Below, piece by piece: positions 2,090 through 57,585 of a stretch of DNA of 64,000 bases. Position numbers and translations under genes: made by a program. Below the pieces are notes generated by a model. The model was given only the letters and a program-made list of their open reading frames with translations, did not search any database and was not told the DNA's origin. The stretch comes from Betaproteobacteria bacterium (GTDB lineage Bacteria; Pseudomonadota; Gammaproteobacteria; Burkholderiales; Ga0077523). Position 1 is the first letter of the stretch, and every line of letters begins with the position of its first letter. The stretch is taken from contig JBAXBV010000012.1 of assembly GCA_037141795.1 (NCBI GenBank), positions 1,987 to 65,986 of the forward strand, given 5' to 3'.

Positions 2090-2103
2090 GGCGGTCTCCG
2101 GGG

Positions 2104-2577: not shown

Positions 2578-2755
2578 GGGGTGACTCCGGGGCGTCGGGG
2601 AGCGGAAGTTGCGCAAGGATACTTGATAACCGGCCGCGCGCGCGTCCCCGCACAGCGCTGGTGCGGCAGTTTGTCGCGGCCCCGGAATGCTCTAGCATTG
2701 GGACTTCGGAGCCGGTGCCCGCCGGCGTGGCAGTTTTCCAGCAAGAGGTCCAAAC

Positions 2756-38481: not shown

Positions 38482-38523
38482 GGGATCTCCCGGGGATGCG
38501 CAATCGATGGGGCGGGGGCTGTC

Positions 38524-39941: not shown

Positions 39942-39971
39942 GGTGGGCTCCGTGGTGGCTCTCTTCGGTGG

Positions 39972-40742
39972 TCAGTCGAACTCCCGGCGCACCGCGTGGG
40001 CGATCTGTTCCGTGAGTTCATCCACCATCAGGTCTCCCTTCTCCCGCGACGCCGCCCGGGCCGACGACAGCACGCCGGAGGGGGGCACCAGTTCCGTCTG
40101 TGGCGGGTACATCTCGTAGGGCGGGAAGTTCGCGGGGCCGTCGTCGGGGATGAGGTCGAGCCGGACGAGGTCGGGGTGGTAGTGCAGCATCATGGAGGTC
40201 TCCAGCACCGCCGCGTGTTCCAGCGCGTAGCCGGGGAAGCCCTCGGGAAAGATCTTCGAGAGGGTCGGGGCGGTGAAGAAGTCCCAGTAGTCCATGCGCA
40301 TGATGGACAGGGGTGGCGTGGCGCCGAATTCGCGCATGGCGAGATCGATGCCTTCGATGAGGAACCACTGATTCTCGTAGTGGCCGTTGCACAGCACCAG
40401 TTTCTTCACGCCGTGGCGGGCGAATTCCCGGACGGTGTCGCGGACCTGTGCCACGAGCGTGGCACCGTCCAGACTGGTGGTACCGCAGAAGTGCTGCCCG
40501 CCGCCGCACTTGGGCTGGGACTTGAAGCCGTAGGCCAGCGGCGGGGCGACGATGCCCGACACGGCCGAGGCGACGCTCTGGGCCACGGCCGTGGCGAGGA
40601 GGTGGTCGGTGCCGAGGGGAAGGTGGGGGCCGTGCTGCTCGGTGGCGCCGCAGGGCAGGAACACCACCGGCTCGTCCCGCTGGACGCGGTCTCGGTAGTC
40701 GGTCCAGCTCATGCGGTTCATCAGGACTTCTTTCGTGCTCAT
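39972..40742 (-). CDS. Creatininase-family amidohydrolase
   Basis: Last 256 aa of ORF 39972..41594(-), starting MSTKEVLMNRMSW. Family motif GATEQHGPHLPLGTD and later NGHYEN. The ATG overlaps the upstream stop (ATGA). Confidence 0.85.
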   Translation of the reverse strand: MSTKEVLMNRMSWTDYRDRVQRDEPVVFLPCGATEQHGPHLPLGTDHLLATAVAQSVASAVSGIVAPPLAYGFKSQPKCGGGQHFCGTTSLDGATLVAQVRDTVREFARHGVKKLVLCNGHYENQWFLIEGIDLAMREFGATPPLSIMRMDYWDFFTAPTLSKIFPEGFPGYALEHAAVLETSMMLHYHPDLVRLDLIPDDGPANFPPYEMYPPQTELVPPSGVLSSARAASREKGDLMVDELTEQIAHAVRREFD

Positions 40743-41653
40743 GGCGACCTCGTGGTTCGTGGGAGAGTGGTGTCGGCGGGTGGGGGCGGGTCGACGGAGA
40801 ACGCTTCCAGCAGTGCGGCGGACGTGATGAGGGCGGCCCCGGCCCACCCGCCGGCGTCCAGCCGCTCGCCGGAGATCAGCATGGCCGAGGCCACGGCTGT
40901 CAGCAGTTCGAAGATGACCAGCACGGCGGCGCGTCCCGCCTCGAGATTGGAGACGCCGTAGGTCTGGGTGCCCATGGCGGCCGTCAACCACAGGCCGGCG
41001 AACGCCGCCAGGCCTGCAGCAAGCCCGGCGGAGATGGGGGGCAGGCCGTGGCGTGCCACGGGAATCAGGGCGGCCCCCACCACGGCGCACCCGACGAAGG
41101 CGATGAGGGTCTTGGGCAGCACCGGCACGCGGTCGGAGGCCCGGGCGCAGATGTTCTGGGACGCGTAGAACAGGCCGGCCCCCACCGCCGCGAGATCGAG
41201 CAGGCCGGGGGGTTGCGCCAGGATGGCCGGGCCGCCCAGCACCAGAAAGGCCCCGGCGATGGCCAGCACCGCACCGGCGGCCCGCAGTCTGGTGATGCGC
41301 TCGCCCAGGAACAGGCGCCCGCCCAGCACGCCCCACACGGGCACGAGGTAGAAAAGCAGCATGGACCGGGCGACCTCGCCGAACATGACGGCGGTGGTGA
41401 AGCACGCATTGGCGAGCCCGCAGAAGGCGGCTGCCCCGGCCACCAGCCGCCACTGCGGCAGCCACTGGAGCCGCAGGCGGAAGATCCACGGCAGCGCCAC
41501 GACACCCACCAGCCCGTAAGTGCAGAGCGTCATGGTGAGGCCCGTGAGCCCCTGGGACGCGAAGTGCTTGAGGGGGATCCAGGCGGTCCCCCACAGGACG
41601 CCGCTCAGCAGCAGCGACAGGACGGCGAGACCCGGTGCCCCCGCGCCGGTCAC
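40739..41653 (-). CDS. EamA/DMT family transporter
   Basis: 304 aa with about 10 TM segments. Confidence 0.8.
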   Translation of the reverse strand: MTGAGAPGLAVLSLLLSGVLWGTAWIPLKHFASQGLTGLTMTLCTYGLVGVVALPWIFRLRLQWLPQWRLVAGAAAFCGLANACFTTAVMFGEVARSMLLFYLVPVWGVLGGRLFLGERITRLRAAGAVLAIAGAFLVLGGPAILAQPPGLLDLAAVGAGLFYASQNICARASDRVPVLPKTLIAFVGCAVVGAALIPVARHGLPPISAGLAAGLAAFAGLWLTAAMGTQTYGVSNLEAGRAAVLVIFELLTAVASAMLISGERLDAGGWAGAALITSAALLEAFSVDPPPPADTTLPRTTRSP

Positions 41654-41654
41654 G

Positions 41655-42686
41655 TCAGACGACCGTCAGGAACGACACGCCGTGCGCGCCCATGAAGCCG
41701 TCGGCGCGCCGGGGGCCGGCGCGGACGCTGCCGTAGTCCTCTCCGAGCACCCGGTTGACGCGGTTGCGGTGGAACGTGCGCAGCAATTCCCGCAGGGGCA
41801 ACAGACAGGGCGTGGCATCGCCGTAGAGTTCGCGGTGCAGGGCGGGCAGGCGGTACCAGGGTACCGACGCGCGCTCGTGGTGGGCGTTGTGGTAGCCGAA
41901 GTTGAGCGTGAGGAGGTTCAGCACAGGGTGGCGGGTGGACACCACGTTGGAGTAGGTGTTGGCCTGCTCGAAGGCGCGGTCCCGGCCGTTCATGGGCACC
42001 TCGACGTTCTCGTCGCTGGTGAAGTACTGGTCGAAGGTGTGGTGGAAGGCGTCGAAGAAATTGAGCGTGGTGAGCAGCAGCCAGTAGGCCGCGGCGTAGC
42101 CGGCGAGTGCCCAGGGCGAGACGACCCAGAGCGCCGCGAACAGGGCGAGACGGCTGATCAGGACCGCCAGCACCCGGCCGCGCCGGTCCCGCTCCCGGGC
42201 GTGGGTGAACGGCCGCCAGAGCAGCTGGGCGTGCATGAGCATTTCGACGGCGGGCACGTGGGCCCACTCGAGGGTGCGCACCAGCCGGCGCAGCGCGGGG
42301 TGACGCTGCAGCAGAGCCTTGTAGTCGAACACGGTGACGTCCGCGCGGTCCCGGTGGTGGCGCAGGTGCATGTGACGGATGCGCTCGAAGGACGCGTAGG
42401 CCGCCCCGCAGATCCAGCCGGCGAGCTCGCCCGTCAGGCGGTTGTGCCGGGGGTCGCGGAACAGGGTGAAGTGCGCCGCTTCGTGAATGAGATACGCAGC
42501 GATGACCATGGTGTGGGCGCACAGCAATATCCCGGCCATCACCGGCAGCACGGACGGGCGGGTCAGCAGGATCAGGGCGAGCAGGTGGCCGAGGGTGACG
42601 TAGCCGATCGCCAGCGAATTGGGCAGGACGCCTTCGCGTTCGCGCATCAGACCCCGATAGGGCATGTCCCGGGTTGCTTGTGGCAT
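41655..42686 (-). CDS. Integral-membrane fatty-acid-desaturase-superfamily di-iron protein (paralogue A)
   Basis: His boxes HEAAH, HLRHH, HNAHH, with hydrophobic segments between them. Ends GVSFLTVV. By alignment with paralogue B the true start may be the internal MREREG (42647). Confidence 0.8.
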   Translation of the reverse strand: MPQATRDMPYRGLMREREGVLPNSLAIGYVTLGHLLALILLTRPSVLPVMAGILLCAHTMVIAAYLIHEAAHFTLFRDPRHNRLTGELAGWICGAAYASFERIRHMHLRHHRDRADVTVFDYKALLQRHPALRRLVRTLEWAHVPAVEMLMHAQLLWRPFTHARERDRRGRVLAVLISRLALFAALWVVSPWALAGYAAAYWLLLTTLNFFDAFHHTFDQYFTSDENVEVPMNGRDRAFEQANTYSNVVSTRHPVLNLLTLNFGYHNAHHERASVPWYRLPALHRELYGDATPCLLPLRELLRTFHRNRVNRVLGEDYGSVRAGPRRADGFMGAHGVSFLTVV

Positions 42687-42812: not shown

Positions 42813-43280
42813 ATGAGCGAGGGCAGACGCAACGCGTCCTCGGGGCGGGCGCGGGTCTCCGCCGGAGAGGCGGCCGGGGGCGTGGGCAAGGCTGGTGCAG
42901 GCAGGGCCGGCGCGCGTTCCGTCGCGGTGCGTGAAGTCGGCCGGCGGACCCGCTTTCTTCGTGGCCTGAGGGAACTGGACACGGCCTGGGTCGAGTCCTT
43001 TCACGAGACCGGCCTGTCGGATGTCTATTTCTCCCGCCTGTTCACGGAACTGTGGCTGCGCGGGGACATGCCGGTTCCGAAGACCGATGCCTACAGCTAC
43101 GTGAAGGGCGTCGGGGTGCAGACCGCCATGAAGTACGTGAAGCGCGCGATCGACCAGGGCTACCTGGAGGAACTCGACAACCCCGCCGACGGCCGGTCCC
43201 GGCTGATCCGGATGACTCCCCGGTTGCGGACCGCTTTCGAGTCGGTCATCGACCGCGCGGCGGCAGCCTTCGGCCTCTGA
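42813..43280 (+). CDS. MarR-like winged-helix regulator (divergent from the desaturase cluster)
   Basis: In-frame tail of ORF 41520..43280(+). GVQTAMKYVKRAIDQGYLEELDNPADGRSRLIRMTPRL resembles a MarR recognition helix plus wing. The N-terminal 40 aa are low-complexity, so the start is uncertain. Confidence 0.55.
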   Translation: MSEGRRNASSGRARVSAGEAAGGVGKAGAGRAGARSVAVREVGRRTRFLRGLRELDTAWVESFHETGLSDVYFSRLFTELWLRGDMPVPKTDAYSYVKGVGVQTAMKYVKRAIDQGYLEELDNPADGRSRLIRMTPRLRTAFESVIDRAAAAFGL

Positions 43281-43489
43281 GACCTCCCGGGGCCGTCCGG
43301 CCTGCCTCCGCCGGTACGGCGGATTGGTCTGGACGGCTCATCGGGGGCACCGTATGGCTGTCATGGGCGGCTGATCAATCCGTGCCAAAGGTCTCTCCGG
43401 CGCGGCGCCGGGGAGCGCATGCCGCCGGGGGCTGGCCGAAGAGCACCGATCCGCCGCGATCCGTTCACTCGACATTCCTGGAGACAAGC

Positions 43490-45088
43490 ATGTTCAATCG
43501 TTCCATTCTCGCGACCGCCGTCGTGGCCGCCCTGGCGTCCATGGCGGGACAGGCGGCCCACGCTGCCACCGGACCCAGCAGTTCCCAGACGCCCTACATC
43601 ACCCCGACTGCCGCCGGCTGGTCGGTGACCTCGATCCTGACGGTGGGCGATTCCGTCAACAACAAGCCCGATGGCACGCCGTACAGGATGGTGGGCATCC
43701 CCGATGGCCTCGGTGCCTATGACAGCGGAGTGAAGAGCTTCGGTGGCGTCGACTACGACACGGTCACGGTGCTGATGGCTCACGAACTCGGGAGCTCCTC
43801 CGGCATCACCCGGGCGCACGGGGCGGCAGGCGCCTTCGTCTCCGAGTGGGTGATCAGCAAGAGCGATTTCCGGGTCCTGAACGGTAGCGACCTGATCACC
43901 TCGCATCAGGTCGCGACCGGGTCGGGTACCTGGGGCGCCGCATCCGGGGCCGCCAACAGTTTCAATCGCTTCTGCTCTGCGGACCTGCCCGCCGTGTCCG
44001 CCCTCTACAACGCGGCGACCGGCCTCGGCACCCAGGCCCGAATCTTCATGAACGGCGAGGAAGCTGGCGCCGAAGGTCGCGCCTACGGCATCGTCGCGAC
44101 CGGCTCCGACAAGGGCAAGGCCTACCAGCTGCCGAGCCTCGGGCGCTTTTCCTGGGAGAACTCGCTTGCCAACCCCTATTCCGGAAACCGCACCGTGGTG
44201 ATCGGCACGGATGACAGCTCTCCCGGTCAGGTGTACCTGTACGTGGGCAACAAGAGCAACACCGGCAACGAGATCCAGAAGGCGGGCCTCGACGGGGGGT
44301 CCCTCTACGGTATCGCGGTGGCCGGCAAGCCCACCGAGACGAACAACGCGATCCCCGCCACGGGGTCGTTCACGGCGGTCGCCCTGAGCAACAACCAGTG
44401 GAACAGCACGGGAGCCAGTCTGCAGACCGAGAGCACCACCAAGGGCGTCACCGAGTTTGCTCGTCCCGAGGACGGCCACTGGGCAGACGAGAAGACCTTC
44501 TACTTCGTCACCACGGGGCGCAGCACGGTGCAGGGCAAGCTCTACAAGATGGACTTCAATGCCACCCTCGGCGACGGCTCGGTGGATTACACGCAGGGCG
44601 CAATCTCCGTGATTCTCGACTCCACCAATGTCACCGGCAAGGATGGGGCCAAGGTAACCATCGCCGGCTTCGACAACATGACGGTGACCAACGACGGGAA
44701 GATCATCATCCAGGACGATCCCGGCAACAACGCCTACAACGCGAAGACCTGGCTGGTGGACCCGAGTACCGGTGCCTACGAGCAGATCTTCGAGTCCGAT
44801 CGGACGCGGTTCGGGACGTCCCAGGCGGGTAATGCGCTCCCGGCAACGGCACCCTTCAGCACCGATGAGGAAAACTCGGGCGTGATCGAGGTCACGGACG
44901 TGCTGAACCGCAACGACGGCAACCGCTATTTCCTGGGCGTGATGCAGGCCCACTACGGGATCAGCGGCGAACTCGTGGAGGGCGGCCAGCTTTACGTGAT
45001 GGCCGTGCCGGAACCGGAAACCTACGCCCTGATGGGGGCCGGTCTCGGCCTGCTGGGTGTTGTCGCCCGGCGTCGCCGGAAGGCCTGA
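43490..45088 (+). CDS. Secreted PEP-CTERM-anchored protein, PhoX/DUF839 (COG3211)-like beta-propeller
   Basis: Tail of ORF 43052..45088, starting MFNRSILATAVVAALASMAGQAAHA (signal peptide). GIPDGLGAY...LMAHEL, GRFSWEN, RPEDGHW, FDNMTV...IIQDDPGNN resemble PhoX-family blocks. C-terminal VPEPETYALMGAGLGLLGVVARRRRKA is a PEP-CTERM sorting signal. Confidence 0.75.
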   Translation: MFNRSILATAVVAALASMAGQAAHAATGPSSSQTPYITPTAAGWSVTSILTVGDSVNNKPDGTPYRMVGIPDGLGAYDSGVKSFGGVDYDTVTVLMAHELGSSSGITRAHGAAGAFVSEWVISKSDFRVLNGSDLITSHQVATGSGTWGAASGAANSFNRFCSADLPAVSALYNAATGLGTQARIFMNGEEAGAEGRAYGIVATGSDKGKAYQLPSLGRFSWENSLANPYSGNRTVVIGTDDSSPGQVYLYVGNKSNTGNEIQKAGLDGGSLYGIAVAGKPTETNNAIPATGSFTAVALSNNQWNSTGASLQTESTTKGVTEFARPEDGHWADEKTFYFVTTGRSTVQGKLYKMDFNATLGDGSVDYTQGAISVILDSTNVTGKDGAKVTIAGFDNMTVTNDGKIIIQDDPGNNAYNAKTWLVDPSTGAYEQIFESDRTRFGTSQAGNALPATAPFSTDEENSGVIEVTDVLNRNDGNRYFLGVMQAHYGISGELVEGGQLYVMAVPEPETYALMGAGLGLLGVVARRRRKA

Positions 45089-47075: not shown

Positions 47076-48077
47076 TCACTTCGCCATCGTGGCGGCGATG
47101 CTGCCGTCCATCGTGTCCTCGGTCTTCGGGATCGCCTTGATCTCGCCCTTGGCCTTGAGAATCTTCGAGATCACGGCACCACTGCCGAACAGGGACGTGG
47201 TCTCGGCACTCTTGGCGAAGACCTTCGGAAACTCCTGCGGGGTCAGGTTGTACACGCCGGACAGCTGCTCGAGGACTTCCTTGTCGCTGATCCCCATCAC
47301 CTTGCCGATCAGCTTGGCGGCCTCGGCGGGGCTCTTCTTCATGTACTCCAGCCCGTCGATGTAGCCCTGGATGAGCGCCTTGACCGCGGCCGGGTTCTTC
47401 TTGATGTACTCGCTCTTGAACACGAGCACGTCGGTGATGAGCCCGGGGGCATCCTTGGAGGAGAAGACCACGTGGAATTTCTTGCCGCCGTCCATGGCCA
47501 CGATCTCGGAGACGCTGGGCTCGTACGTCACGCCGATCTTGACGCCACCGGAGGCGAGACCTGCCGGCACGCCCTCGGGCGGCATGTTCACGGGCTTGAT
47601 GTCCGACTCGGACAGCTTGTTGGTCTGCAGGGCGTAGGACAGCAGGAAGTCGGAGGGCGACAGGGGGTTGTAGGCGATCTTCTGCCCCTTGAACTGGGCC
47701 ACGGAGGTGATGTCCTTGGTGGCCACGATGGCGTCGCCGCCGTTGGAGTAGTCGATGGGCATGACCACCTTCATGGAAGAGCCCTTGGCCACGGAACTGA
47801 CCACCTGGTCGTAGGTGATCATGCCGCCGTCCACGGAACCGCCGGTCACGGCGGGCGGGATGAGGGCGGGGTCGTTGAAGATCTGCATGGTGACCTTCAC
47901 GCCCGATTTCTTGAAGAGATCCAGCTGGTCGGCCACATAGAACGGGCCGTAGCCGATCCAGATCACGGTGCCCACCTTGATCGGGGTCGCCGCAAAGGCG
48001 GCGGCGGACAGCACAGACCCGGCAAGGCAGGCAAGAGCCAGCCCGGTCCGGCGCAGCAGGGAAGACGAAGTCAGCAT
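47076..48077 (-). CDS. NitT/TauT-family ABC transporter substrate-binding protein (riboswitch-controlled; probable guanidine-binding component)
   Basis: 333 aa with signal peptide. VIWIGYGPFYVAD...ITYDQ...SPSDFLL...IGVTYEP. AGGAG SD 3 nt plus upstream. Preceded by ykkC copy B. Confidence 0.85.
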   Translation of the reverse strand: MLTSSSLLRRTGLALACLAGSVLSAAAFAATPIKVGTVIWIGYGPFYVADQLDLFKKSGVKVTMQIFNDPALIPPAVTGGSVDGGMITYDQVVSSVAKGSSMKVVMPIDYSNGGDAIVATKDITSVAQFKGQKIAYNPLSPSDFLLSYALQTNKLSESDIKPVNMPPEGVPAGLASGGVKIGVTYEPSVSEIVAMDGGKKFHVVFSSKDAPGLITDVLVFKSEYIKKNPAAVKALIQGYIDGLEYMKKSPAEAAKLIGKVMGISDKEVLEQLSGVYNLTPQEFPKVFAKSAETTSLFGSGAVISKILKAKGEIKAIPKTEDTMDGSIAATMAK

Positions 48078-48120
48078 GATGGAGCTCCTGGGTTGGGAAA
48101 CATGGCACGGGAGCCGTCTC

Positions 48121-48227
48121 GCTCTCCCGGGCTTTTATCCCTCCGTGGAGCTCCGTGAACCCGGAGCCGGGCCGCTCTCGGACCAGACGCCCTCGCTCAG
48201 CGCGATGGCCGGAACCCTAGCTGCCCT
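48121..48227 (-). promoter_or_regulatory. Guanidine-I (ykkC subtype 1) riboswitch, copy B
   Basis: The - strand reads GGGCAGCTAGGGTTCCGG...CTGGTCCGAGAGCGGCCC...CCACGGAGGGATAAAAGCCCGGGAGAGC. The three invariant ykkC blocks and a P1 closing helix are present. Confidence 0.8.
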
Positions 48228-48280
48228 CGACGATGTCCCGCGGGTGGCCACGAGACGACTTGCCGTTCGATCCCTCTTTC

Positions 48281-48295
48281 GCAAACCCGGTGCCA
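48281..48295 (-). promoter_or_regulatory. Sigma54 (-24/-12) promoter for the SBP/desaturase/SDR unit
   Basis: The - strand reads TGGCACcgggtTTGC with canonical GG-N10-GC spacing. It lies about 50 nt upstream of riboswitch B. Confidence 0.6.
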
Positions 48296-48561
48296 AGGGC
48301 GCCGGAGGGCGTGACCGGCCCGCGGTCTCCTAGGAAAACGGGCCGTCCCGCCACGATGCGGGCCCGAAGGACGCGTGCCCGAAAAAGGTGCGACCGCGTC
48401 TCTCGCGTGCACTCATTCCGGGCGCCATCCCGCGGGCGTGGGGGCCGGACTGGGCACGGCGCGGTGGGTGTCTCCGTGCTCCGGTTCCCGAACGTCCGCA
48501 TCCGATGCCTGCAAGGCGTCTCCCGTCGGGTCCGCGGCAGGCGATGCGTTCCCGCCAGGGG

Positions 48562-48577
48562 TGGCACACCGGTTGCA
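48562..48577 (+). promoter_or_regulatory. Sigma54 (-24/-12) promoter for the guanidine carboxylase operon
   Basis: TGGCACaccggTTGCA, a perfect match to TGGCAC-N5-TTGCW. It lies about 45 nt upstream of riboswitch A. Confidence 0.65.
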
Positions 48578-48622
48578 ACATCCGGAGCAAGAGAGGAGCG
48601 CACGACTGTGGCTCTTGTCGTT

Positions 48623-48722
48623 GTCGGCTAGGGTTCCGGGCGCGTCGAGCGCTGGCTGGTCCGAGAGCCGACGGTCCCGCCGTTCACCGCGGGGCTCCAC
48701 GGAGGGATAAAAGCCCGGGAGG
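48623..48722 (+). promoter_or_regulatory. Guanidine-I (ykkC subtype 1) riboswitch, copy A
   Basis: GTCGGCTAGGGTTCCGG...CTGGTCCGAGAGCCGAC...CCACGGAGGGATAAAAGCCCGGGAGG. P1 is GUCGGC/GCCGAC. All conserved blocks are present. Confidence 0.85.
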
Positions 48723-48754
48723 CCGAGTCGTTCGTCTGGTCCTCTCCCCTTTTT
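48717..48754 (+). terminator. Riboswitch A expression platform: candidate intrinsic terminator
   Basis: GGGAGG (3' end of the aptamer) can pair with TCTCCC (48743..48748), and is followed by C-TTTTT (48750..48754). Confidence 0.5.
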
Positions 48755-48868
48755 CCGTTTCCACAGTGGAGTCCGCGATGTCCGCACGCCGCAGCCCCCG
48801 TCGTCCTTCCCCCGCCCCGCGGGCTTTCCTTGCCGCCTCCGGCGCGGCCTGAAGGGAGGACCGACGCC

Positions 48869-49684
48869 ATGTCGAACCCTGCCTCCTCCGCCCGCCCGGG
48901 CCTGTGGTCCATCCGCGGACCCATGAGCCAGCGGCGCTACTGGGTGCTGGCCGCCGTGGGCCTCATCCTGCCGATGGTCGCCTGGTGGCTGGTGGCCAAC
49001 TCGGGGTGGGTCGAGAAGGTCTTCATGCCTGCCCCGGATGCGGTCTGGTCCCGGACCGTCCTGTGGTTCGACGAGGACCATCTCATGGCGGACATGGCGA
49101 TCAGCATCTACCGGGTCACGGCCGGATGGGCGCTCTCCGCGGTGATCGCGCTGCCCCTGGGGCTGCTCATCGGAACCTTCCGGCCGGTCCAGGCGCTGCT
49201 CGAGCCGCTCACGGATTTCGTCCGCTACATGCCGGCGGTGGCGTTCATCCCGCTGGTCATGCTCTGGGTGGGGATCGACGAGGGGTCGAAGATCACCATC
49301 ATCTTCATCGGCACCTTCTTCCAGATGGTGCTGATGGTGGCCGAGGACGTGCGTCGCGTGCCCACGCCGCAGATCGAGGCCGCGCAGACCATGGGAGCCA
49401 CCCGGTCCGAGATCATCCAGCTCGTGCTGCTGCCGTCCGCCAAGCCGGCTCTGGTCGACACGATGCGGGTGACGATGGGCTGGGCGTGGACCTACCTGGT
49501 GGTGGCGGAACTCGTGGCCGCGAACTCCGGGCTTGGCTACGCCATCCTCAAGGCGCAGCGCTTCCTCCAGACCGACAAGATCTTTGCGGGCATCATCCTG
49601 ATCGGCCTGATCGGCCTGGTGACCGATCAGCTCTTCCGCTTCTGCCACCGTAAGGCGTTTCCATGGATGCATCTCAAGTCGTGA
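48869..49684 (+). CDS. NitT/TauT-family ABC transporter permease
   Basis: Track ORF 48830..49684, with start moved to MSNPASS after a GAAGGGAGGA SD. Six TM segments. EAA-type loop IEAAQTMGATRSEIIQLVLLPSAKPAL. Confidence 0.85.
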   Translation: MSNPASSARPGLWSIRGPMSQRRYWVLAAVGLILPMVAWWLVANSGWVEKVFMPAPDAVWSRTVLWFDEDHLMADMAISIYRVTAGWALSAVIALPLGLLIGTFRPVQALLEPLTDFVRYMPAVAFIPLVMLWVGIDEGSKITIIFIGTFFQMVLMVAEDVRRVPTPQIEAAQTMGATRSEIIQLVLLPSAKPALVDTMRVTMGWAWTYLVVAELVAANSGLGYAILKAQRFLQTDKIFAGIILIGLIGLVTDQLFRFCHRKAFPWMHLKS

Positions 49685-50529
49685 GCCCCGATCCGAAGAT
49701 CCGCATCCGCGGCCTCGGCAAGACCTTCGAGGGCGCCCAGAAGGTCGTGGCCCTGGACAACATCGACCTCGATGTCCGGGAGAACGAATTCGTGACCCTC
49801 GTGGGCGCCTCGGGCTGCGGCAAGTCCACGCTGCTGCGGATCATCGGCGGGCTCGAGTATCACACCGCCGGCAGCGTGGTGGCGGGCGGCCGGACCGTCT
49901 CGGGGGCGGGCGCGGATCGCGCGATGGTGTTCCAGCACTACAGCCTGTATCCGTGGCTCGACGTGATGGACAACATCCGCTTCTCCCGCCGGCTGCGCGT
50001 CAATCGCGAGAACCTCACCTCGGCCGACGTCGAGCGCGCGAGCGGCCGGGCGGAGGCGCTGCTGAACCTCATGGGCCTGTCGTCCATGGCGCGCGCGTTC
50101 CCGAGCCAGCTGTCCGGGGGGATGCAGCAGCGCGTGGCCATTGCCCGGGCCCTCATGCCGCGGCCGGAGATCCTCCTCATGGACGAGCCCTTCGGGGCCC
50201 TCGACGCGCAGACGCGGGAGGTCATGCACGACCTCATCCTGCACGTGTTCAAGCTCGAGCGGGCCACGATCGTGTTCGTGACCCACGATGTGGAAGAGGC
50301 CATCTACCTCGGGCAGCGGGTGGTGCTGCTGGCGCCGCGGCCGGGCCGCATCGACACGATCTACGAGCCGCCCCTGAAGGGTCCTCGGCACCAGGACATG
50401 AAGCACTCGCGCGAGTTTCTCGACATGAAGAAGGAGATCCTCGAGCGGATCCGCGAGACCTCGGGCATGAAGACCGACTCGGGCCTGCTCGCCCAGATGT
50501 CCCGCTCCGCCGGCCACGACGGCGCCTGA
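49663..50529 (+). CDS. ABC transporter ATP-binding protein
   Basis: Walker A GASGCGKST, signature LSGGMQQRVAIARAL, Walker B ILLMDEP. Overlaps the permease 3' end. Confidence 0.9.
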   Translation: MDASQVVSPDPKIRIRGLGKTFEGAQKVVALDNIDLDVRENEFVTLVGASGCGKSTLLRIIGGLEYHTAGSVVAGGRTVSGAGADRAMVFQHYSLYPWLDVMDNIRFSRRLRVNRENLTSADVERASGRAEALLNLMGLSSMARAFPSQLSGGMQQRVAIARALMPRPEILLMDEPFGALDAQTREVMHDLILHVFKLERATIVFVTHDVEEAIYLGQRVVLLAPRPGRIDTIYEPPLKGPRHQDMKHSREFLDMKKEILERIRETSGMKTDSGLLAQMSRSAGHDGA

Positions 50530-50560
50530 ACGCAACCCGGAACACCCAGGAGAACCCGTG

Positions 50561-51298
50561 ATGACCGACGACAACGACAGCCCTCCGGGTGCCGTGCTCT
50601 GGGAGGAAACCATTCCCGGCGGCGCTCACTGGTCGGGCGTGGTCCGGCGCGGTGTGGCGCTTCGCCTGACCGACCTGCGCGGTCGCGCGAACGCGGCCAT
50701 GCTGATCTTCAACCACGAGGAGCGGTTCGAGCGCTACAACATGCCCGATACCCTCAAGTCCCAGCACACCGCGTTCCTCACCCGCGGCAACGTGCTGCAC
50801 TCGGACATGGGCCGCGCCATGGCGTCGGTGATCGCGGACACCTGCGGCTGGCACGACACGATCTGCGGGGTGATGGATGACGCGACGCTCGCGGGACGCT
50901 ACGGGGCGAGGCGCTACCAGGAACACCGCAACGGCATGACCCGCAGCGGCCGGGAGGGCTTCCTCAAGGAACTGGCGCGTTCGGGTCTGGGCGGGCGGGA
51001 CCTGCACGCCAACGTCAACTGGTTCAGCAAGCTCGTGGCGGATGCCGACGGCGCGCTGCATTTCGACACCGGGCACCGGGCTCCCGGGCAGTACGTGGAC
51101 CTGCGCTTCGACATGGATGCGCTGGTGGTGATCTCCACCTGCCCGCACCCCCTCGATCCCGCGACGGTCTGGGACCCCGCGCCAGTGGGCATGGCGGCCT
51201 GGCGCTGCGGGCTCCCCGGCGCGGACGATTCATGCCGCCTGCACCGGCCGGAGAACGGCCGGGCCCTCACGAACACCGAGCGGTACTTCGCGCACTGA
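50561..51298 (+). CDS. DUF1989 'urea carboxylase-associated protein' (carboxyguanidine deiminase CgdA/B-type subunit)
   Basis: Starts [31 protein letters not shown]...DTLKSQHTA...[15 protein letters not shown]. Located directly upstream of the carboxylase. Confidence 0.85.
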
Positions 51299-51353: not shown

Positions 51354-51995
51354 ATGCTGATCGAGAGCACTCGCGACCCCGCCGGGGCGGTCGTGGACGA
51401 GATCTGTGCGGCGGGCGAGCCGTGGATGCGCGTGATCCGGAAGGGTCAGGTGTTCCGCATCCTCGACCTGGAGGGAAACCAGGCGGTGGACACGCTGTTC
51501 TACAGCGCCGCGGACCGGGAGGACCGCTACAGCGCCGTGGACACCATCCAGCGCAACGGCAACCTCTACCTCACGGCCGGGACCCGGCTCTATTCCACAT
51601 CGGGAGCGGTGATGCTCACGATCGTGGCCGACACCTGCGGCCGTCACGACACCCTGGGCGGGGCGTGTTCGCAGGAGAGCAACACGGTGCGCTACGCACT
51701 CGACAAGCGCTTCATGCACGCCTGTCGGGACAATTTCATGTCCGCCATCTGTCACCACCCCGAGCACGGGCTGGAGAAGCGGGACATCACCCACAACATC
51801 AACTTCTTCATGAACGTGCCGGTGACGCCGACGGGCGGGCTCACCTTCGAGGATGGGATCTCGGCACCCGGCAAGTACGTGGAGATGCGCGCGGAGATGG
51901 ACGTCGTGTGCCTCATCTCCAACTGCCCCCAGCTCAACAATCCCTGCAACGCCTACAACCCGACCCCGATCCGGCTGCTCGTCTGGAACGGCTGA
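51354..51995 (+). CDS. DUF1989 'urea carboxylase-associated protein' (second CgdA/B-type subunit)
   Basis: 213 aa. [23 protein letters not shown]...[18 protein letters not shown]. Paralogous fold to the preceding gene. Confidence 0.85.
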
Positions 51996-52028: not shown

Positions 52029-55000
52029 ATGTTCACGAAAGTCCTCATCGCCAACCGCGGCGCGATCGCGTGCCGCATCATCCGCACCCTGCGGTCCATG
52101 GGAATCGCCTCCGTGGCGGTCTACTCCGAGGCCGACCGTGCCTCACGCCACGTGTCCGAGGCGGACGAGGCCGTCTGCCTGGGGCCGGCGCCGGCCGCGC
52201 AGAGCTATCTCCGGGTGGACCGCATTCTCGAGGCCGCCCGGTCGACGGGCGCCCAGGCCATCCACCCCGGTTACGGATTCCTGTCCGAGAACGCCGACTT
52301 CGCCCAGGCCTGCGCCGACGCGGGGCTGGTGTTCATCGGCCCGGCTCCGGCCCACATGCGGGCCTTCGGACTGAAGCACGAGGCGCGCGCCCTGGCGCAG
52401 GCCAGCGGGGTGCCGCTGCTGCCCGGTTCGGGGCTGCTGGCGGATCCGGGCAACGCCCGCGCCGAGGCACGCCGCATCGGCTATCCGGTCATGCTCAAGA
52501 GCACGGGCGGTGGCGGCGGCATCGGCATGCGGCTGGTATGGAGCGAGGACGAACTCGGCGAGGCCTTCGAGTCGGTGGCGCGGCTCGCCCGCGCGAACTT
52601 CAAGGACGCCGGCATGTTCCTCGAGAAGTTCGTGGCGCAGGCCCGGCACATCGAGGTGCAGATCTTCGGCGATGGTCGTGGTCACGTGGTGGCCCTGGGC
52701 GAGCGCGACTGCTCCGTGCAGCGGCGCAACCAGAAGGTGATCGAGGAAACGCCCGCCCCGGGCCTCGCGGCGGATACGCGGGAGCGCCTGCTGGCCACGG
52801 CAGTGGCGCTGGGATCCGCGGTGGGGTACGCGTCGGCGGGAACGGTCGAGTTCGTGCTCGATGCCGAGACCGGCGAGTTCCACTTCCTCGAGGTCAACAC
52901 GCGGCTGCAGGTGGAGCACGGGGTCACCGAGGAGGTGACCGGCATCGATCTGGTGGAGTGGATGGTGCGTCAGGCCGCGGGGGAGCTCGACCTGTCGGAC
53001 TTTCGCGCCGCGCCGGCGGGGGCGTCGATCCAGGTGCGCCTGTACGCCGAGGATCCCGCGAAGAACTTCCAGCCCTCGAGCGGGGTGCTCACCGCGGCGG
53101 AGTTTCCGCCCGGGGTACGGGTGGAGACCTGGGTCCAGCGGGGCACCGAGGTGCCGCCGAACTACGACCCGATGATCGCCAAGGTTCTGGTGCGCGCCCC
53201 CGACCGCGCGGCCGCCATCGCCGCGATGGGCGCAGCGCTGGACGGCACGGCCGTGGCCGGCATCGAGACCAACCTGGAGTACCTGCGCCAGGTGATCGCG
53301 TCGCCCACCTTCCGCGAGGGTCGCCAGACCACCCGCTTTCTCGGGAGCTTCCACTACCGGCCTGCCACCATCGACGTGCTCGAGCCGGGCGTGCAGACCA
53401 CGGTGCAGGACTGGCCCGGGCGGGTGGGGTACTGGGCAGTGGGGGTGCCGCCCTCGGGACCCATGGACAGTCTCGCCCTGAGGCTGGCCAACCGGCTGCT
53501 GGGCAATGCCGAGGGCGCAGCCGCCCTCGAATGCACGGCGAGCGGGCCCACGCTGCGCTTCCAGCAGGACACGGTGATCGCGCTCTGCGGCGCGGCCATG
53601 TCCGCCGAACTCGACGGCGAGCCGGTGCCGCTCTGGCGCACCCGCGCGGTGGCGGCCGGCAGCGTGCTGCGGCTGGGCCGGATCGAGGGGGCGGGGCTGC
53701 GGACCTACCTCGCGGTGGCGGGCGGGTTCGCGGTGCCCGACTATCTCGGCTCGAAGTCCACCTTCACCCTGGGCCAGTTCGGCGGCCACGCCGGGCGCAC
53801 GCTGCGGGCGGGTGACGTGCTGCCGCTCGTGAAGGGGCAGGCGCTTCCGGCGCGGAATGTCCTGCGCCCGGACCTGGTGCCCGTTTATTCGCACCGCTGG
53901 GAGATCGGTGTCCTCTACGGCCCCCACGGCGCACCGGATTTCTTCACGCCAGCGGACATCGACATGTTCTTCGGCACGGACTGGGAGGTGCACTACAACT
54001 CCAGCCGTACCGGGGTGCGCCTCATCGGGCCGCGCCCGCAGTGGGCGCGCAGCGACGGCGGCGAGGCGGGACTGCATCCGTCCAACATCCACGACAACGC
54101 CTACGCAATCGGGGCCATCGATTTCACCGGCGACATGCCGGTGATCCTCGGTCCGGATGGTCCCAGCCTGGGGGGCTTCGTCTGCCCTGCCGTCATCGCC
54201 GATACGGAGCTCTGGAAGGTCGGGCAGCTGCGGCCCGGGGACTCGGTGCGGTTCGTCCGGGTCGGGCAGGCCTGGGCGGCGCGCCAGGAGGCCGTGGCGG
54301 AGAGGACCCTGGCGCGGTTGCGCCGGCCCGCGAGCGAGCCGCGCCCGGCGGCGGAGCGCCTGCCTTCGCCCGTGCTGCACCGGGTCGAAGCGTCCGGGTC
54401 CCGACCGGCGGTGGTGTACCGGCAGTCCGGCGACAAGTGGCTGCTGGTCGAATACGGCGACCTGACCCTGGACATCGCGCTGCGCTTCCGGGTCCACTCC
54501 CTGATGACGTGGCTCGAGGCCCGCCAGGTACCGGAGATCGTGGATCTCACGCCGGGCATCCGGTCCCTGCAGGTGCACTTCGACAACCGGCGCCTGCCGC
54601 TCGAGCGCCTGCTGCGGCTGCTGGAGGCGGCGGAGCAGGAACTTCCGGACGTGGATGATCTGGTGGTGCCCGCCCGCACGGTCCACCTGCCCTTGTCCTG
54701 GGACGACCCGGCGACCCGGCTCGCCATCGAGAAATACACTCAGTCCGTGCGGCGGGACGCTCCCTGGTGCCCGAGCAACATCGAGTTCATCCGTCGCATC
54801 AACGGCCTCGACAGCATCGACGAAGTACGGCGCATCGTCTTCGACGCCTCGTACCTGGTGCTCGGCCTGGGCGATGTCTACCTCGGGGCGCCGGTCGCGA
54901 CGCCCGTCGACCCGCGGCATCGGCTGGTGACCACCAAGTACAACCCGGCGCGCACCTGGACGCCGGAGAATGCCGTGGGCATCGGCGGGGCCTACCTGTG

Positions 55001-55628
55001 CGTCTACGGCATGGAAGGGCCGGGCGGCTACCAGTTCGTCGGGCGCACGGTGCAGATGTGGAACCGCCACCGCCAGACAGCCGATTTCCGCGACGGCAGG
55101 CCCTGGCTGCTGCGGTTCTTCGACCGCATCCGCTTCTTTCCCGTGACGGAGCAGGAGCTCCTGGAGATGCGGGAGGCCTTTCCCCTGGGCCGCTACCGCC
55201 TCCGGGTGGAGGAAGGGGAATTCCGACTCGGCGACTACCAGCGTTTCCTGAGCGACAATGCGTCTGCCATCGGCGCCTTCAAGGCCCGTCAGCAGGCGGC
55301 CTTCGAGGCCGAGCGGGAGCGCTGGCGGGTGTCTGGCCAGGCGGACCTTGCCACCGACGTGCAGGTGGCCCAGGCCGCGCCCGATGCCGAACTCGACCTG
55401 CCGCCGGGATGCCGGGCGGTGGCGACGCACGTGGCCGGCAATGTCTGGCGCGTGCCCGTGAAGGAGGGCGATCGCGTCCACGCCGGCGACCCGCTGGTGA
55501 TCGTCGAATCCATGAAGATGGAGATCGGCCTGACCGCCCCGGTGGCGGGCACCGTGGCACGGCTCTTCTGCCAGGAGGGCAGTCAGGTCGCGGCCGGGCA
55601 GGATCTGCTCGTGCTGCGCGAGGAATGA
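52029..55628 (+). CDS. uca: Urea carboxylase-family biotin enzyme; by riboswitch context probably guanidine carboxylase
   Basis: 1199 aa. Biotin carboxylase N-terminus MFTKVLIANRGAIACRIIRT, central KipA/KipI (allophanate hydrolase subunit-like) domains, C-terminal biotinyl site VIVESMKMEI. Confidence 0.9.
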   Translation: MFTKVLIANRGAIACRIIRTLRSMGIASVAVYSEADRASRHVSEADEAVCLGPAPAAQSYLRVDRILEAARSTGAQAIHPGYGFLSENADFAQACADAGLVFIGPAPAHMRAFGLKHEARALAQASGVPLLPGSGLLADPGNARAEARRIGYPVMLKSTGGGGGIGMRLVWSEDELGEAFESVARLARANFKDAGMFLEKFVAQARHIEVQIFGDGRGHVVALGERDCSVQRRNQKVIEETPAPGLAADTRERLLATAVALGSAVGYASAGTVEFVLDAETGEFHFLEVNTRLQVEHGVTEEVTGIDLVEWMVRQAAGELDLSDFRAAPAGASIQVRLYAEDPAKNFQPSSGVLTAAEFPPGVRVETWVQRGTEVPPNYDPMIAKVLVRAPDRAAAIAAMGAALDGTAVAGIETNLEYLRQVIASPTFREGRQTTRFLGSFHYRPATIDVLEPGVQTTVQDWPGRVGYWAVGVPPSGPMDSLALRLANRLLGNAEGAAALECTASGPTLRFQQDTVIALCGAAMSAELDGEPVPLWRTRAVAAGSVLRLGRIEGAGLRTYLAVAGGFAVPDYLGSKSTFTLGQFGGHAGRTLRAGDVLPLVKGQALPARNVLRPDLVPVYSHRWEIGVLYGPHGAPDFFTPADIDMFFGTDWEVHYNSSRTGVRLIGPRPQWARSDGGEAGLHPSNIHDNAYAIGAIDFTGDMPVILGPDGPSLGGFVCPAVIADTELWKVGQLRPGDSVRFVRVGQAWAARQEAVAERTLARLRRPASEPRPAAERLPSPVLHRVEASGSRPAVVYRQSGDKWLLVEYGDLTLDIALRFRVHSLMTWLEARQVPEIVDLTPGIRSLQVHFDNRRLPLERLLRLLEAAEQELPDVDDLVVPARTVHLPLSWDDPATRLAIEKYTQSVRRDAPWCPSNIEFIRRINGLDSIDEVRRIVFDASYLVLGLGDVYLGAPVATPVDPRHRLVTTKYNPARTWTPENAVGIGGAYLCVYGMEGPGGYQFVGRTVQMWNRHRQTADFRDGRPWLLRFFDRIRFFPVTEQELLEMREAFPLGRYRLRVEEGEFRLGDYQRFLSDNASAIGAFKARQQAAFEAERERWRVSGQADLATDVQVAQAAPDAELDLPPGCRAVATHVAGNVWRVPVKEGDRVHAGDPLVIVESMKMEIGLTAPVAGTVARLFCQEGSQVAAGQDLLVLREE

Positions 55629-55683: not shown

Positions 55684-57486
55684 ATGACCGACGCGCTTGA
55701 CCTCACCCTTTCCACCTTGTCCGCCCGGTACCGCGCAGGCGAACTCACGCCGGTCGCCCTGGTGGAATCCCTGGCGGCGCGGCTGGAGACGCCCGACGCC
55801 CACTGCGCGTGGATCCACCGCCTGCCCCGGGCCCGTCTGCTGGCCTTCGCCCAGGCGCTCGAGGGGCGCGATCCAGCATCCCTGCCGCTCTACGGGATTC
55901 CCTTTGCGGTCAAGGACAACATCGACCTCGAGGGCGTGCCGACCACCGCGGCGTGCCCTGGTTACGAGTACGTGCCCCAGGCGAGCGCGACCGTCGTCCA
56001 GCGACTCGTCGACGCGGGGGCGATTCCCCTGGGCAAGACCAACCTGGACCAGTTCGCCACGGGTCTCGTGGGCACCCGCTCTCCCTACGGCGCCTGCCGC
56101 AACAGTTTCGATCCGGACTACGTCTCCGGCGGGTCGAGTGCGGGGTCGGCGGTGGTGGTGGCGCTCGGGCTGGCCAGCTTCAGCCTGGGTACGGACACCG
56201 CCGGCTCGGGCCGGGTGCCTGCCGCCTTCAACAACCTGGTCGGACACAAGCCCACGCGCGGCCTGCTTCCGGCGGGCGGGGTGGTGCCGGCCTGCCGGTC
56301 GCTCGACACGGTGTCGGTGTTCGCCCTGACGGCGGAGGATGCGGCCCGGGTCATGGCGGTGGCCACGGCCTTCGATCCGGCCGACGGGTTTTCCCGCCCT
56401 GCCGAGCCCTGCGGGCCCCGCTTCGGGCCGGGATTCCGCTTCGGTGTCCCCCGGGAGGCCGAACTCGAATATTTCGGCAACGGGGACTACGCGCGGCTGT
56501 TCCGCGAGACCGTCGCGAGCCTCGAGGCCCTGGGCGGCAAGGCCGTGGAAGTCGACATCCGGCCAATGCTCGAGGCGGCGCGCCTGCTGTACGACGGGCC
56601 CTGGGTGGCCGAACGCTACGCGGCGATCCGCCCCTTCTTCGACGCGCACGCCGCCGAACTGCACCCGGTGACGCGCCAGATCCTGGACAGGAGCCGGGCG
56701 TGGCTGGCGGCGGACGCCTACGACGCGCTCTATCGCCTCAATGCCCTGCGGCGGACGGCCGACCGGGCCTGGGCCCATGTGGACCTGATCGTGACGCCCA
56801 CGGCGGGATCCCACTACCGCATCGACGCGGTGGACGCGGACCCCATCCGGCTCAACGCCAACCTGGGGTACTACACGAACTTCATGAACCTGCTGGACTA
56901 CGCTGCCACCGCCGTTCCCGCCGGCTTCACGCCGGCCGGCCTGCCCTTCGGCGTGACCGTCTTCGCCCCGGCGCACCGTGATCTCCCGCTGCTGGAGCTG
57001 GCGGGCCGGTTGCAGCGGGCCCGGGTGGGCACGCTGGGCGCGACGGGCCTGCCCTTGCCCCCGGCCGAGTCGCTGGAAGCCGCCGTCGCCGCCGCCTCCG
57101 GGCTGGTGCGGGTGGCGGTGTGCGGGGCGCACATGTCCGGCCTGCCGCTGAATCCGCAGCTGACGTCCCGGGGCGGGCGCCAGGTCGCGACGGTACGCAG
57201 CGCGCCCTGTTACCGGTTCTACGCGCTGCCGGGCGGTCCTCCCCGGCGACCGGGGATGGTCCGGGTGGCCGGCGGTGGCGGGGCCGTGGAGATGGAGATC
57301 TGGACGTTGCCGGCCCGGGAGTTCGGCAGCTTCGTGGCGGGCATTCCGGCGCCGCTGGGCATCGGCACGGTGCTGCTGGAGGACGGCGGGTCCGTGCAGG
57401 GGTTCGTGTGCGAGGCCGCTGCCGCCGAGGGCGCCGAGGACATCACGACGCTCGGGGGCTGGCGCGCCTACCTGGCGCGGGCCTGA
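55684..57486 (+). CDS. atzF: Allophanate hydrolase (amidase signature family)
   Basis: 600 aa. GGSSAGSAVVVALG...GTDTAGSGRVPAAFN amidase signature plus the AtzF-type C-terminal domain. Confidence 0.9.
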   Translation: MTDALDLTLSTLSARYRAGELTPVALVESLAARLETPDAHCAWIHRLPRARLLAFAQALEGRDPASLPLYGIPFAVKDNIDLEGVPTTAACPGYEYVPQASATVVQRLVDAGAIPLGKTNLDQFATGLVGTRSPYGACRNSFDPDYVSGGSSAGSAVVVALGLASFSLGTDTAGSGRVPAAFNNLVGHKPTRGLLPAGGVVPACRSLDTVSVFALTAEDAARVMAVATAFDPADGFSRPAEPCGPRFGPGFRFGVPREAELEYFGNGDYARLFRETVASLEALGGKAVEVDIRPMLEAARLLYDGPWVAERYAAIRPFFDAHAAELHPVTRQILDRSRAWLAADAYDALYRLNALRRTADRAWAHVDLIVTPTAGSHYRIDAVDADPIRLNANLGYYTNFMNLLDYAATAVPAGFTPAGLPFGVTVFAPAHRDLPLLELAGRLQRARVGTLGATGLPLPPAESLEAAVAAASGLVRVAVCGAHMSGLPLNPQLTSRGGRQVATVRSAPCYRFYALPGGPPRRPGMVRVAGGGGAVEMEIWTLPAREFGSFVAGIPAPLGIGTVLLEDGGSVQGFVCEAAAAEGAEDITTLGGWRAYLARA

Positions 57487-57585
57487 CCCGGCGGGTCCAG
57501 CGCGAAAGCGGGCGGCCGCCCCTGACTTTCGTCGGGTCGACGGGGGCGGTTACGCGGTAGCATGCGCGCTCCGGAAGGGGGTGGC

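Follow-up and report, generated by a model that had tools for sequence, protein, structure and literature searches.

Guanidine-I riboswitches are known to precede operons for guanidine carboxylase, CgdAB and allophanate hydrolase as well as genes of NitT/TauT-type importers (Nelson et al. 2017, as reported in PMC11410670; PMC12186494), and in Synechocystis sp. PCC 6803 it has been shown experimentally that NtcA activates the gdmH promoter and that a guanidine-I riboswitch gates its output (PMC12704784). Here we analyse a stretch of 64,000 nucleotides from a Betaproteobacteria bacterium (contig JBAXBV010000012.1), which as a whole is called the window, and within it the intergenic gap between the start of a minus-strand substrate-binding protein (SBP) gene at 48077 and that of a plus-strand permease gene at 48869. 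This gap carries two guanidine-I aptamers back to back, each downstream of its own sigma-54 promoter element. We consider it probable that the two divergent units act as AND gates, in which a sigma-54 promoter activated by NtrC is followed by a guanidine-I riboswitch.

The cyanobacterial case resembles this locus in its logic. In Synechocystis, and by our reading in the window too, initiation depends on a global nitrogen regulator and elongation on a guanidine-I riboswitch of the 5' untranslated region (UTR), guanidine is assimilated as a nitrogen source, and transporter genes stand on a separate nitrogen-controlled unit. The parts are different, since the Synechocystis promoter has a common -10 element and an NtcA site centred at -42 instead of a sigma-54/enhancer architecture, and the route is that of a guanidine hydrolase and not the carboxylase pathway. 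Also, the Synechocystis riboswitch sits in the gdmH unit, none being described for the transporter promoter, whereas in the window both arms have one; and control there is experimental, while for the window it is computational. A nitrogen regulator combined with a guanidine-I riboswitch is therefore already known from cyanobacteria, and what the present comparison adds is the under-described promoter coupling as a general rule in Proteobacteria.

Closer in phylogeny is a cluster of Burkholderia cenocepacia H111, I35_7283-7286 (BCAS0269-0272), whose expression under nitrogen limitation is lost in an ntrC mutant, as determined by RNA-seq; its genes are annotated as urea-carboxylase ABC binding protein, 'urea carboxylase-related aminomethyltransferase' and urea carboxylase. 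Of the top 150 genes under NtrC regulation in that study, 95% were regulated by sigma-54 as well (PMC5491218). Sigma-54 control has been predicted as well for COG3665 genes (PMC12316311). In both papers the genes are discussed in terms of urea, and guanidine and the riboswitch go unmentioned. Like the window, this cluster belongs to a betaproteobacterium and combines an ABC binding protein, an aminomethyltransferase-annotated gene, which we take to encode a DUF1989 protein, and a carboxylase; unlike in the window, its NtrC dependence has been shown by RNA-seq.

Sigma factors and NtrC are absent from a 2025 review of guanidine physiology, in which the word 'promoter' occurs in the reference list only (PMC12186494), and our literature search, which did not reach Nelson 2017 and Sinn 2021, returned no paper joining a guanidine riboswitch to sigma-54, RpoN or NtrC. 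With the known guanidine-I units the window shares the aptamer sequence and fold, an ON-switch terminator overlapping the 3' tail and the controlled gene set. It differs from them in having two complete back-to-back units with a common upstream region, an explicit sigma-54 promoter for each, a leader predicted to pair with the segment following the aptamer, and genes for a desaturase-family protein and a short-chain dehydrogenase/reductase (SDR) on one arm. The window thus adds no new class of element; its value lies in the general rule that it exposes, in a candidate helix termed P0, and in the uncharacterised gene module of the minus arm.

Two guanidine-I aptamers behind divergent sigma-54 promoter elements

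A cmscan run over the whole window at gathering threshold resulted in two matches in total, both to RF00442 (Guanidine-I; gathering score 63) and both lying in the gap, where each is preceded by a sigma-54 element:

48617-48723, plus strand: Guanidine-I aptamer, plus copy; RF00442, 91 bits, E 4e-15, model positions 1-107 of 107
48231-48122, minus strand: Guanidine-I aptamer, minus copy; RF00442, 83 bits, E 3e-13, model positions 1-107 of 107
48562..48576, plus strand: sigma-54 -24/-12 element TGGCACACCGGTTGC of the plus arm; exact consensus, GG 48563-48564, GC 48575-48576
48281..48295, minus strand: sigma-54 -24/-12 element TGGCACCGGGTTTGC of the minus arm; exact consensus, GG 48294-48293, GC 48282-48281

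A preliminary description of this stretch had assigned both RNAs to ykkC subtype 1, and the scores of the two copies above the RF00442 gathering value bear this out; the positions that it gave, 48623-48722 and 48227-48121, are the cores of the two matches. In the cmscan alignments the strongly conserved RF00442 consensus blocks CUAGGGUUCCG, CUGGUCCGAGAG and CACGGAGGGAUAAAAGCCCGGGAG are exact in both aptamers, and so are the core nucleotides CUAGGGUUCCG, GGUCCGAGAG and ACGGAGGGAUAAAAGCCCGGGAG. Alignments of 38 and of 13 related units evidence many double (compensatory) changes in P1, P1a and P2 (for example, pair 84-144 is GC in 14, UG in 14 and AU in 4, and pair 100-125 is UA in 15 and CG in 14), with an invariant P3. 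The two aptamers lie in the predicted 5' UTRs of genes for an ABC importer, CgdAB, carboxylase and allophanate hydrolase, and are ordinary RF00442 members in their canonical gene context, which presumably bind guanidinium.

Just two exact copies of the motif TGGCAC-N5-TTGC are present in the 64 kb, one at 48562-48576 (plus) and one at 48295-48281 (minus), against 0.11 expected from shuffled sequence, where two or more copies occurred in 0 of 100 shuffles. Each copy lies 41-50 nt 5' of one of the RF00442 matches and is oriented towards it. The transcription starts, taken as about 12 nt 3' of the GC, are predicted at about 48588 (plus arm) and 48269 (minus arm). The plus-arm element is kept at the homologous place in L124, L126, L132 and L092, four of the related loci considered below. 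Promoter elements at these positions, pointing to the aptamers, were what the preliminary description had claimed, and its observation was confirmed in all particulars.

Conservation of the promoter coupling in Proteobacteria

The generality of this arrangement was assessed on a sample of guanidine-I riboswitches collected with a pattern that specifies the aptamer only, and is thus blind to the promoter, taking one genome per species; it comprises at least 120 loci (L001-L120), and viral contigs scanned with the aptamer pattern yielded zero matches. An element was called when GG and GC were present and at least 9 of the 10 consensus bases matched within 130 nt 5' of the riboswitch. Among the matches listed, to which all counts and distances from this sample refer, the element stands at 58 of 68 proteobacterial copies and is missing from all 55 that come from Firmicutes, cyanobacteria, actinobacteria, Campylobacterota and ammonia oxidisers, with a background in the same proteobacterial loci of about 0.01 elements per 130-nt window. 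By group, it was found as follows:

Gammaproteobacteria: 23 of 30
Betaproteobacteria: 19 of 20
Alphaproteobacteria: 13 of 15
Unclassified Proteobacteria: 3 of 3
Firmicutes: 0 of 29
Cyanobacteria: 0 of 11
Actinobacteria: 0 of 9
Campylobacterota: 0 of 2
Nitrosomonas / Nitrosospira: 0 of 4

The distance between element and aptamer clusters by class: alphaproteobacteria have 31-38 nt, betaproteobacteria 60-96 nt and gammaproteobacteria 37-110 nt. This speaks for a promoter rather than a part of the RNA.

A second sample consists of 80 metagenome loci (L123-L202) that encode relatives of the window SBP with 58-88% identity. Wherever enough upstream sequence was available, the riboswitches of these SBP-related loci have the element at 9 or more of 10 bases in 57 of 60 cases and at 8 or more in 60 of 60, located 75-97 nt 5' of CTAGGG, and the per-column information profile forms a sharp island exactly on TGGCAC-N5-TTGC within unconserved surroundings. 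The window, of about 70% G+C, has its closest relatives in Rhodocyclaceae and Burkholderiales metagenome bins. Alignment of the gap with a Rhodocyclaceae-like relative (L126, L092) shows that both promoters and both aptamers are conserved and the spacer has diverged. The divergent double layout recurs in L126, L092 and L124, and each window aptamer is orthologous to its counterpart in L126, which makes the pair old; a recent inverted duplication of one unit was considered and is ruled out by this aptamer-by-aptamer orthology.

These results contradict the rarity implied in the preliminary description, as the arrangement is the norm in Proteobacteria. Among proteobacterial regulatory regions of guanidine genes the locus is typical and no oddity, the coupling to the promoter being under-described. 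The dependence on RpoN read from the motif gains from the retention of the element in both samples, and a sigma-54 reading that holds for the window and is general in Proteobacteria is strongly supported, as judged from sequence conservation. In this phylum, guanidine-I riboswitches would almost always stand in series with sigma-54 promoters that have NtrC-like enhancers, and this coupling explains why guanidine assimilation genes appear in NtrC and RpoN regulons as 'urea' genes.

Some further features of the two samples are recorded here. With the 31-38 nt spacing of alphaproteobacteria the start would fall at the foot of P1, and the mostly 60-110 nt spacing of beta- and gammaproteobacteria leaves room for a structured leader. 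Guanidine-I riboswitches without a sigma-54-like element upstream are found in Nitrosomonas and Nitrosospira (L023, L047, L049, L104) and in Campylobacterota (L010, L075), and 5 of these 6 precede carboxylase-pathway or importer genes; in ammonia oxidisers, lack of the element would fit a use of guanidine whenever it is available, outside nitrogen control. In L124, whose SBP is 88% identical to that of the window, a GGDEF-EAL gene (1431-2858, minus strand) lies between divergent units that are about 2 kb apart.

NtrC-like sites and the probable activator

Candidate activator sites were scored against the palindrome TGCACC-N5-GGTGCA, the enteric NtrC consensus, counting mismatches over 12 positions. 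Two sites are located between the promoters:

48376-48392: NtrC-like site TGCCCGAAAAAGGTGCG, 3/12 mismatches, centre 48384
48408-48424: NtrC-like site TGCACTCATTCCGGGCG, 4/12 mismatches, centre 48416

The first of these had been noticed before and is present as described; it had been given as the only one, and in this respect the description is amended by the second. The two centres are 32 bp apart, at 89 and 121 nt from the TGGCAC of the minus arm, so that the tandem pair would lie at about -115/-147 with respect to the predicted minus-arm start and at about -204/-172 with respect to that of the plus arm. Close relatives have comparable pairs at 95/126, 94/125, 107/138 and 86/118 nt from the promoter, with a spacing of about 31 bp. 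Taken alone the pair in the window is not significant, and its weight comes from the comparison with other loci. Within 55 upstream regions, sites with at most 3 mismatches were found in 35 (8.4 expected) and sites with at most 2 in 16 (1.2 expected), mostly 60-130 nt before the promoter. Of 105 regions, 29 have pairs 30-34 bp apart, where 2.6 would be expected, and the spacings are phased at 10 bp, as seen from counts of 21, 25, 29, 15 and 11 in the in-phase bins and of 12, 6, 8 and 0 in the out-of-phase bins.

In NtrC enhancers of the glnAp2 type, a sigma-54 promoter is preceded by tandem sites that are separated by about three helical turns. The window is similar to these in the palindromic tandem, about 31-32 bp apart and at about -110 to -150, in an architecture that tolerates changes in distance and orientation; the difference is that one weak pair would serve two divergent promoters, whose output would then be filtered by riboswitches. 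The tandem is therefore a candidate enhancer common to both promoters. Neither the window nor the proteobacterial 8-kb blocks around riboswitches contain a GAFTGA or Walker-type activator motif, a result that excludes a dedicated activator encoded locally; since no activator gene is linked, a global regulator is indicated, and NtrC is most probably the protein involved. A link to nitrogen status had been no more than a guess in the preliminary description, and it is now supported indirectly by the phased enrichment of NtrC-like sites, the lack of a local activator gene and the NtrC-dependent cluster of B. cenocepacia.

It could be argued that the sigma-54 promoters are real and respond to some other enhancer-binding protein encoded elsewhere, for instance one that senses urea, guanidine or carbon, in which case the first layer of control would not report general nitrogen status. 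The weakness of the sites in the window would agree with this, as would the fact that about a third of the loci have no site at 3 or fewer mismatches and that alphaproteobacterial loci fit the enteric consensus poorly. However, NtrC-like palindromes are enriched 4- to 13-fold, helically phased and placed at the typical -85 to -155 positions, the lack of a linked activator gene in the proteobacterial blocks argues for a global regulator, and knockout of ntrC abolishes expression of the like-annotated B. cenocepacia cluster (PMC5491218), so that we regard another activator as unlikely. As the B. cenocepacia sequence was not matched, the RNA-seq link to NtrC is made through the like annotation and through other Burkholderiaceae loci (L024, L074 and L099), in which a sigma-54 promoter, an NtrC-like site and a riboswitch stand before a carboxylase cluster.

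Leaders, expression platforms and a candidate P0 helix

The segments on either side of the aptamers were analysed by repeat search and folding, and the following features are proposed:

48588..48622, plus strand: plus-arm leader; GAGAGGA 48591-48597 is complementary to UCCUCUC 48740-48746 (pairing predicted from a repeat search pair and a fold), with an alternative local hairpin
48717..48755, plus strand: plus-arm terminator-like hairpin; GGGAGGCC 48717-48724 with GGUCCUCUCCC 48738-48748, then UUUUU 48750-48754
48226..48269, minus strand: minus-arm leader; GGCAAGUCGUCUCG 48264-48251 can pair with CGAGACGGCUCC at about 48121-48110 (P0), or form a local hairpin 48256-48235
48078..48128, minus strand: minus-arm expression platform; hairpin of GGGAG 48128-48124 with CUCCC 48113-48109, then a weak U run

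In the plus arm, the terminator-like hairpin was recognised from folds and from direct reading of the sequence, a simple terminator scan not having listed it. With its 5' arm the hairpin overlaps the aptamer at the 3' end of the latter, where P3 and the GGGAG tail lie, and such competition between terminator and P3 is as expected for an ON switch. The leader block GAGAGGAGCG of this arm is kept in L124, L126 and L132. In the minus arm, the Shine-Dalgarno sequence AGGAG (48089-48085) falls within GGAGCUCC (48088-48081), which is self-complementary and identical to the GGAGCUCC inside the minus aptamer (48154-48147); the two copies pair in the minimum-energy fold of this arm, and control may thus involve termination, masking of the ribosome-binding site or both.

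Beta-type units have in their leaders a conserved block whose complement is found directly 3' of the aptamer; RNAalifold predicted the resulting long-range helix, P0, unprompted in two alignments. In the 13 closest units, which include the window minus arm, 96.7% of cells pair, in comparison with 39-51% for slid partners, and the covariation score is above that of all 500 shuffles; in 38 more distant units the corresponding figures are 87% and 43-66%, with weak covariation. On its 5' side P0 is formed by a strand that begins no more than about 5 nt from the predicted sigma-54 start, and on its 3' side by the terminator-like hairpin, of which it takes up the loop and the 3' arm; the equivalent in the plus arm is GAGAGGA 48591-48597 with UCCUCUC 48740-48746. 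The complementarity is evident from the sequences, and we infer that P0 acts as an antiterminator, which would form when the ligand-bound aptamer withholds the GGGAG tail, turning the switch ON. A P0-type antiterminator was not found described for guanidine-I expression platforms in our literature search.

This coincidence of start and structure bears also on the possibility that the TGGCAC-N5-TTGC motifs are non-functional look-alikes, transcription starting from unrecognised sigma-70-type promoters with guanidine as the sole signal. Near-matches are plentiful in high-G+C genomes (the window has 7 one-mismatch sites for 4.7 expected), and the guanidine literature consulted here describes the class with riboswitch-only control (PMC12186494; PMC11410670). 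In spite of this, exact matches in the window are confined to the gap, position, orientation and sequence are kept over about 100 independent loci in which the flanks vary, a sigma-70-like consensus scan of 47800-49100 gave no match, and the conserved RNA structure starts at the predicted sigma-54 start. Taking these together, it is very unlikely that the motifs are such look-alikes.

Proposed mechanism

The arrangement that we favour is one of two independent divergent units of the same design, each with a sigma-54 promoter, a short leader, a guanidine-I aptamer and an expression platform. Neither arm would be transcribed until the closed sigma-54 complex is remodelled by an enhancer-binding protein; this is most probably NtrC in its phosphorylated form, which from the shared tandem site between the promoters would convey nitrogen limitation. 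The nascent RNA would then be read through (plus arm) or expressed (minus arm) only with guanidinium in the aptamer: the ligand would lock the GGGAG tail into P3, and the pyrimidine-rich downstream strand thereby freed would pair with the 5' leader as P0, instead of entering a terminator or sequestor hairpin. The outcome would be an AND gate, requiring both low nitrogen and guanidine. The plus arm would provide the membrane and ATPase parts of the importer, guanidine carboxylase, CgdAB and allophanate hydrolase, and thus ammonia from guanidine; the minus arm would provide the importer's binding protein together with an SDR and an oxygenase of the desaturase family. A two-layer AND gate was already put forward in the preliminary description, and it is favoured by the aptamer scores and the promoter conservation, with NtrC as the presumed activator.

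A number of observations speak against this scheme or weaken it. Both transcription starts are predictions from motifs. The NtrC-like sites of the window are weak, and about 0.7 sites with at most 3 mismatches are expected by chance in such a gap; further, no rpoN, ntrB or ntrC gene was seen in the window, where no search was aimed at rpoN. The minus arm has no convincing U tract, which leaves its mode of control uncertain. Single-sequence folding energies are no different from those of shuffles, in a sequence of 70% G+C, and the covariation of P0 is modest, being significant only in the 13 closest units, so that sequence conservation could explain part of it. Finally, plasmid BLAST for the B. 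cenocepacia locus gave only Caballeronia, Pantoea, Rhizobium and similar hosts, and the homologue search listed no B. cenocepacia protein.

The AND gate predicts that guanidine induces such operons only under nitrogen limitation, in parallel to the control by NtcA and riboswitch in cyanobacteria. This matters for growth and reporter experiments, and for the use of these riboswitches as inducible tools.

Genes of the two arms

The plus arm encodes the following proteins, the NCBIfam matches (TIGR numbers) being all above their cut-offs:

48869-49684, plus strand: ABC permease (Pfam)
49663-50529, plus strand: ABC ATPase (Pfam)
50558-51298 and 51354-51995, plus strand: DUF1989 proteins UAAP1/UAAP2 (TIGR03425, 341 bits; TIGR03424, 347 bits)
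52029-55628, plus strand: urea/guanidine carboxylase, 1199 aa (TIGR02712, 1905 bits, cut-off 1304)
55684-57486, plus strand: allophanate hydrolase (TIGR02713, 786 bits)

The UAAP1/UAAP2 proteins are taken to be the carboxyguanidine deiminase subunits CgdA/CgdB. With a urea_carbox-family biotin carboxylase, two DUF1989 subunits and allophanate hydrolase encoded together, the genes of this arm are, by family assignment, those of the known carboxylase route of guanidine breakdown. Guanidine carboxylases are told apart from urea carboxylases by the residue at position 701 of the TIGR02712 model (PMC11410670). The identification of the aptamers as ykkC subtype 2, sensing ppGpp, PRPP or nucleoside diphosphates, would draw on the ykkC fold that subtype 2 RNAs have in common with the guanidine class and on the cross-matching of sequence models that may follow, but it has next to no probability and is ruled out, given that every highly conserved RF00442 position is matched in both copies, that a permissive Rfam rescan of 47900-49000 gave no competing family at E <= 1, and that the genes downstream are those of the guanidine carboxylase pathway and an importer, unlike the amino-acid, purine or PRPP genes of subtype 2 contexts.

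The minus arm encodes:

48077-47076, minus strand: NMT1-family SBP (Pfam)
46981-45977, minus strand: FA_desaturase-family membrane protein, 334 aa as delimited by gene callers (Pfam)
45963-45169, minus strand: SDR (Pfam)

With the genes of the importer divided between the two arms, there is a simple reason for having the same control on both. Among the SBP-related loci, a desaturase-like match is present in 71 of 82 and an SDR match in 41 of 82, and the order SBP, desaturase-like protein, SDR recurs; relatives add a second desaturase-family oxygenase gene, and genes for a creatininase are likewise recurrent in these loci. No PDB relative of the desaturase-family protein was found by sequence, its homologues are named only 'fatty acid desaturase', and no paper linking such desaturase/SDR genes to guanidine riboswitches was returned by the literature search. 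The protein may be a membrane di-iron oxygenase whose substrate is a guanidino or alkylguanidine compound, and the minus-arm pathway, with its dedicated binding protein, might either liberate guanidine from an alkyl- or guanidino-compound or process such a compound further. These genes thereby stand out as a widespread uncharacterised module, predicted to be controlled by guanidine. That sigma-54 start and riboswitch in beta and gamma units form one co-evolved device through the P0 antiterminator, and at the same time that the minus arm is a new guanidine-regulated pathway, is a joint proposal which we advance tentatively and with less than even confidence.

The gap itself had been described as having no credible open reading frame (ORF). 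In agreement, gene callers found no gene in the corresponding gap of L121, an independent metagenome contig in which the SBP is identical and the neighbouring window proteins match at 100%. The description has to be qualified in one point, as the 5' UTR of the permease gene contains a short ORF:

48779..48853, plus strand: 24-codon ORF (MSARRSPRRPSPAPRAFLAASGAA*), aligning with the start of a second NMT1 SBP gene in L126 and L092

At the same place L124 also has an SBP gene, and the ORF is probably what is left of the signal peptide of a second SBP gene. This gene seems to have disappeared from the window, so that a single SBP, encoded on the opposite arm, serves the transporter.

Directly 3' of the allophanate hydrolase gene, a sodium:neurotransmitter-symporter-family gene (57562-58950, plus strand) may belong to the plus-arm operon. 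Beyond the minus arm there is a second cluster (37474-42686, minus strand), with a paralogous FA_desaturase-family gene (42686-41655) whose product has a weak NCBIfam match to GntB, the guanitoxin L-arginine gamma-hydroxylase. It also encodes a protein of 540 aa whose C-terminal part is a creatininase domain (41594-39972, minus strand), a metallo-beta-lactamase-fold protein (39486-38524, minus strand) and a second NMT1 SBP (38481-37474, minus strand); a creatininase match occurs in about 25 of the SBP-related loci. In several relatives the paralogous desaturase gene lies 3' of the SDR gene, on the same strand and within about 1-1.5 kb. In the window, a gene of the opposite strand separates the SDR gene from the second desaturase-family gene; it encodes a PhoX-like protein with a PEP-CTERM anchor (43052-45088, plus strand), and in view of the order seen in these relatives it may be an insertion that split the operon.

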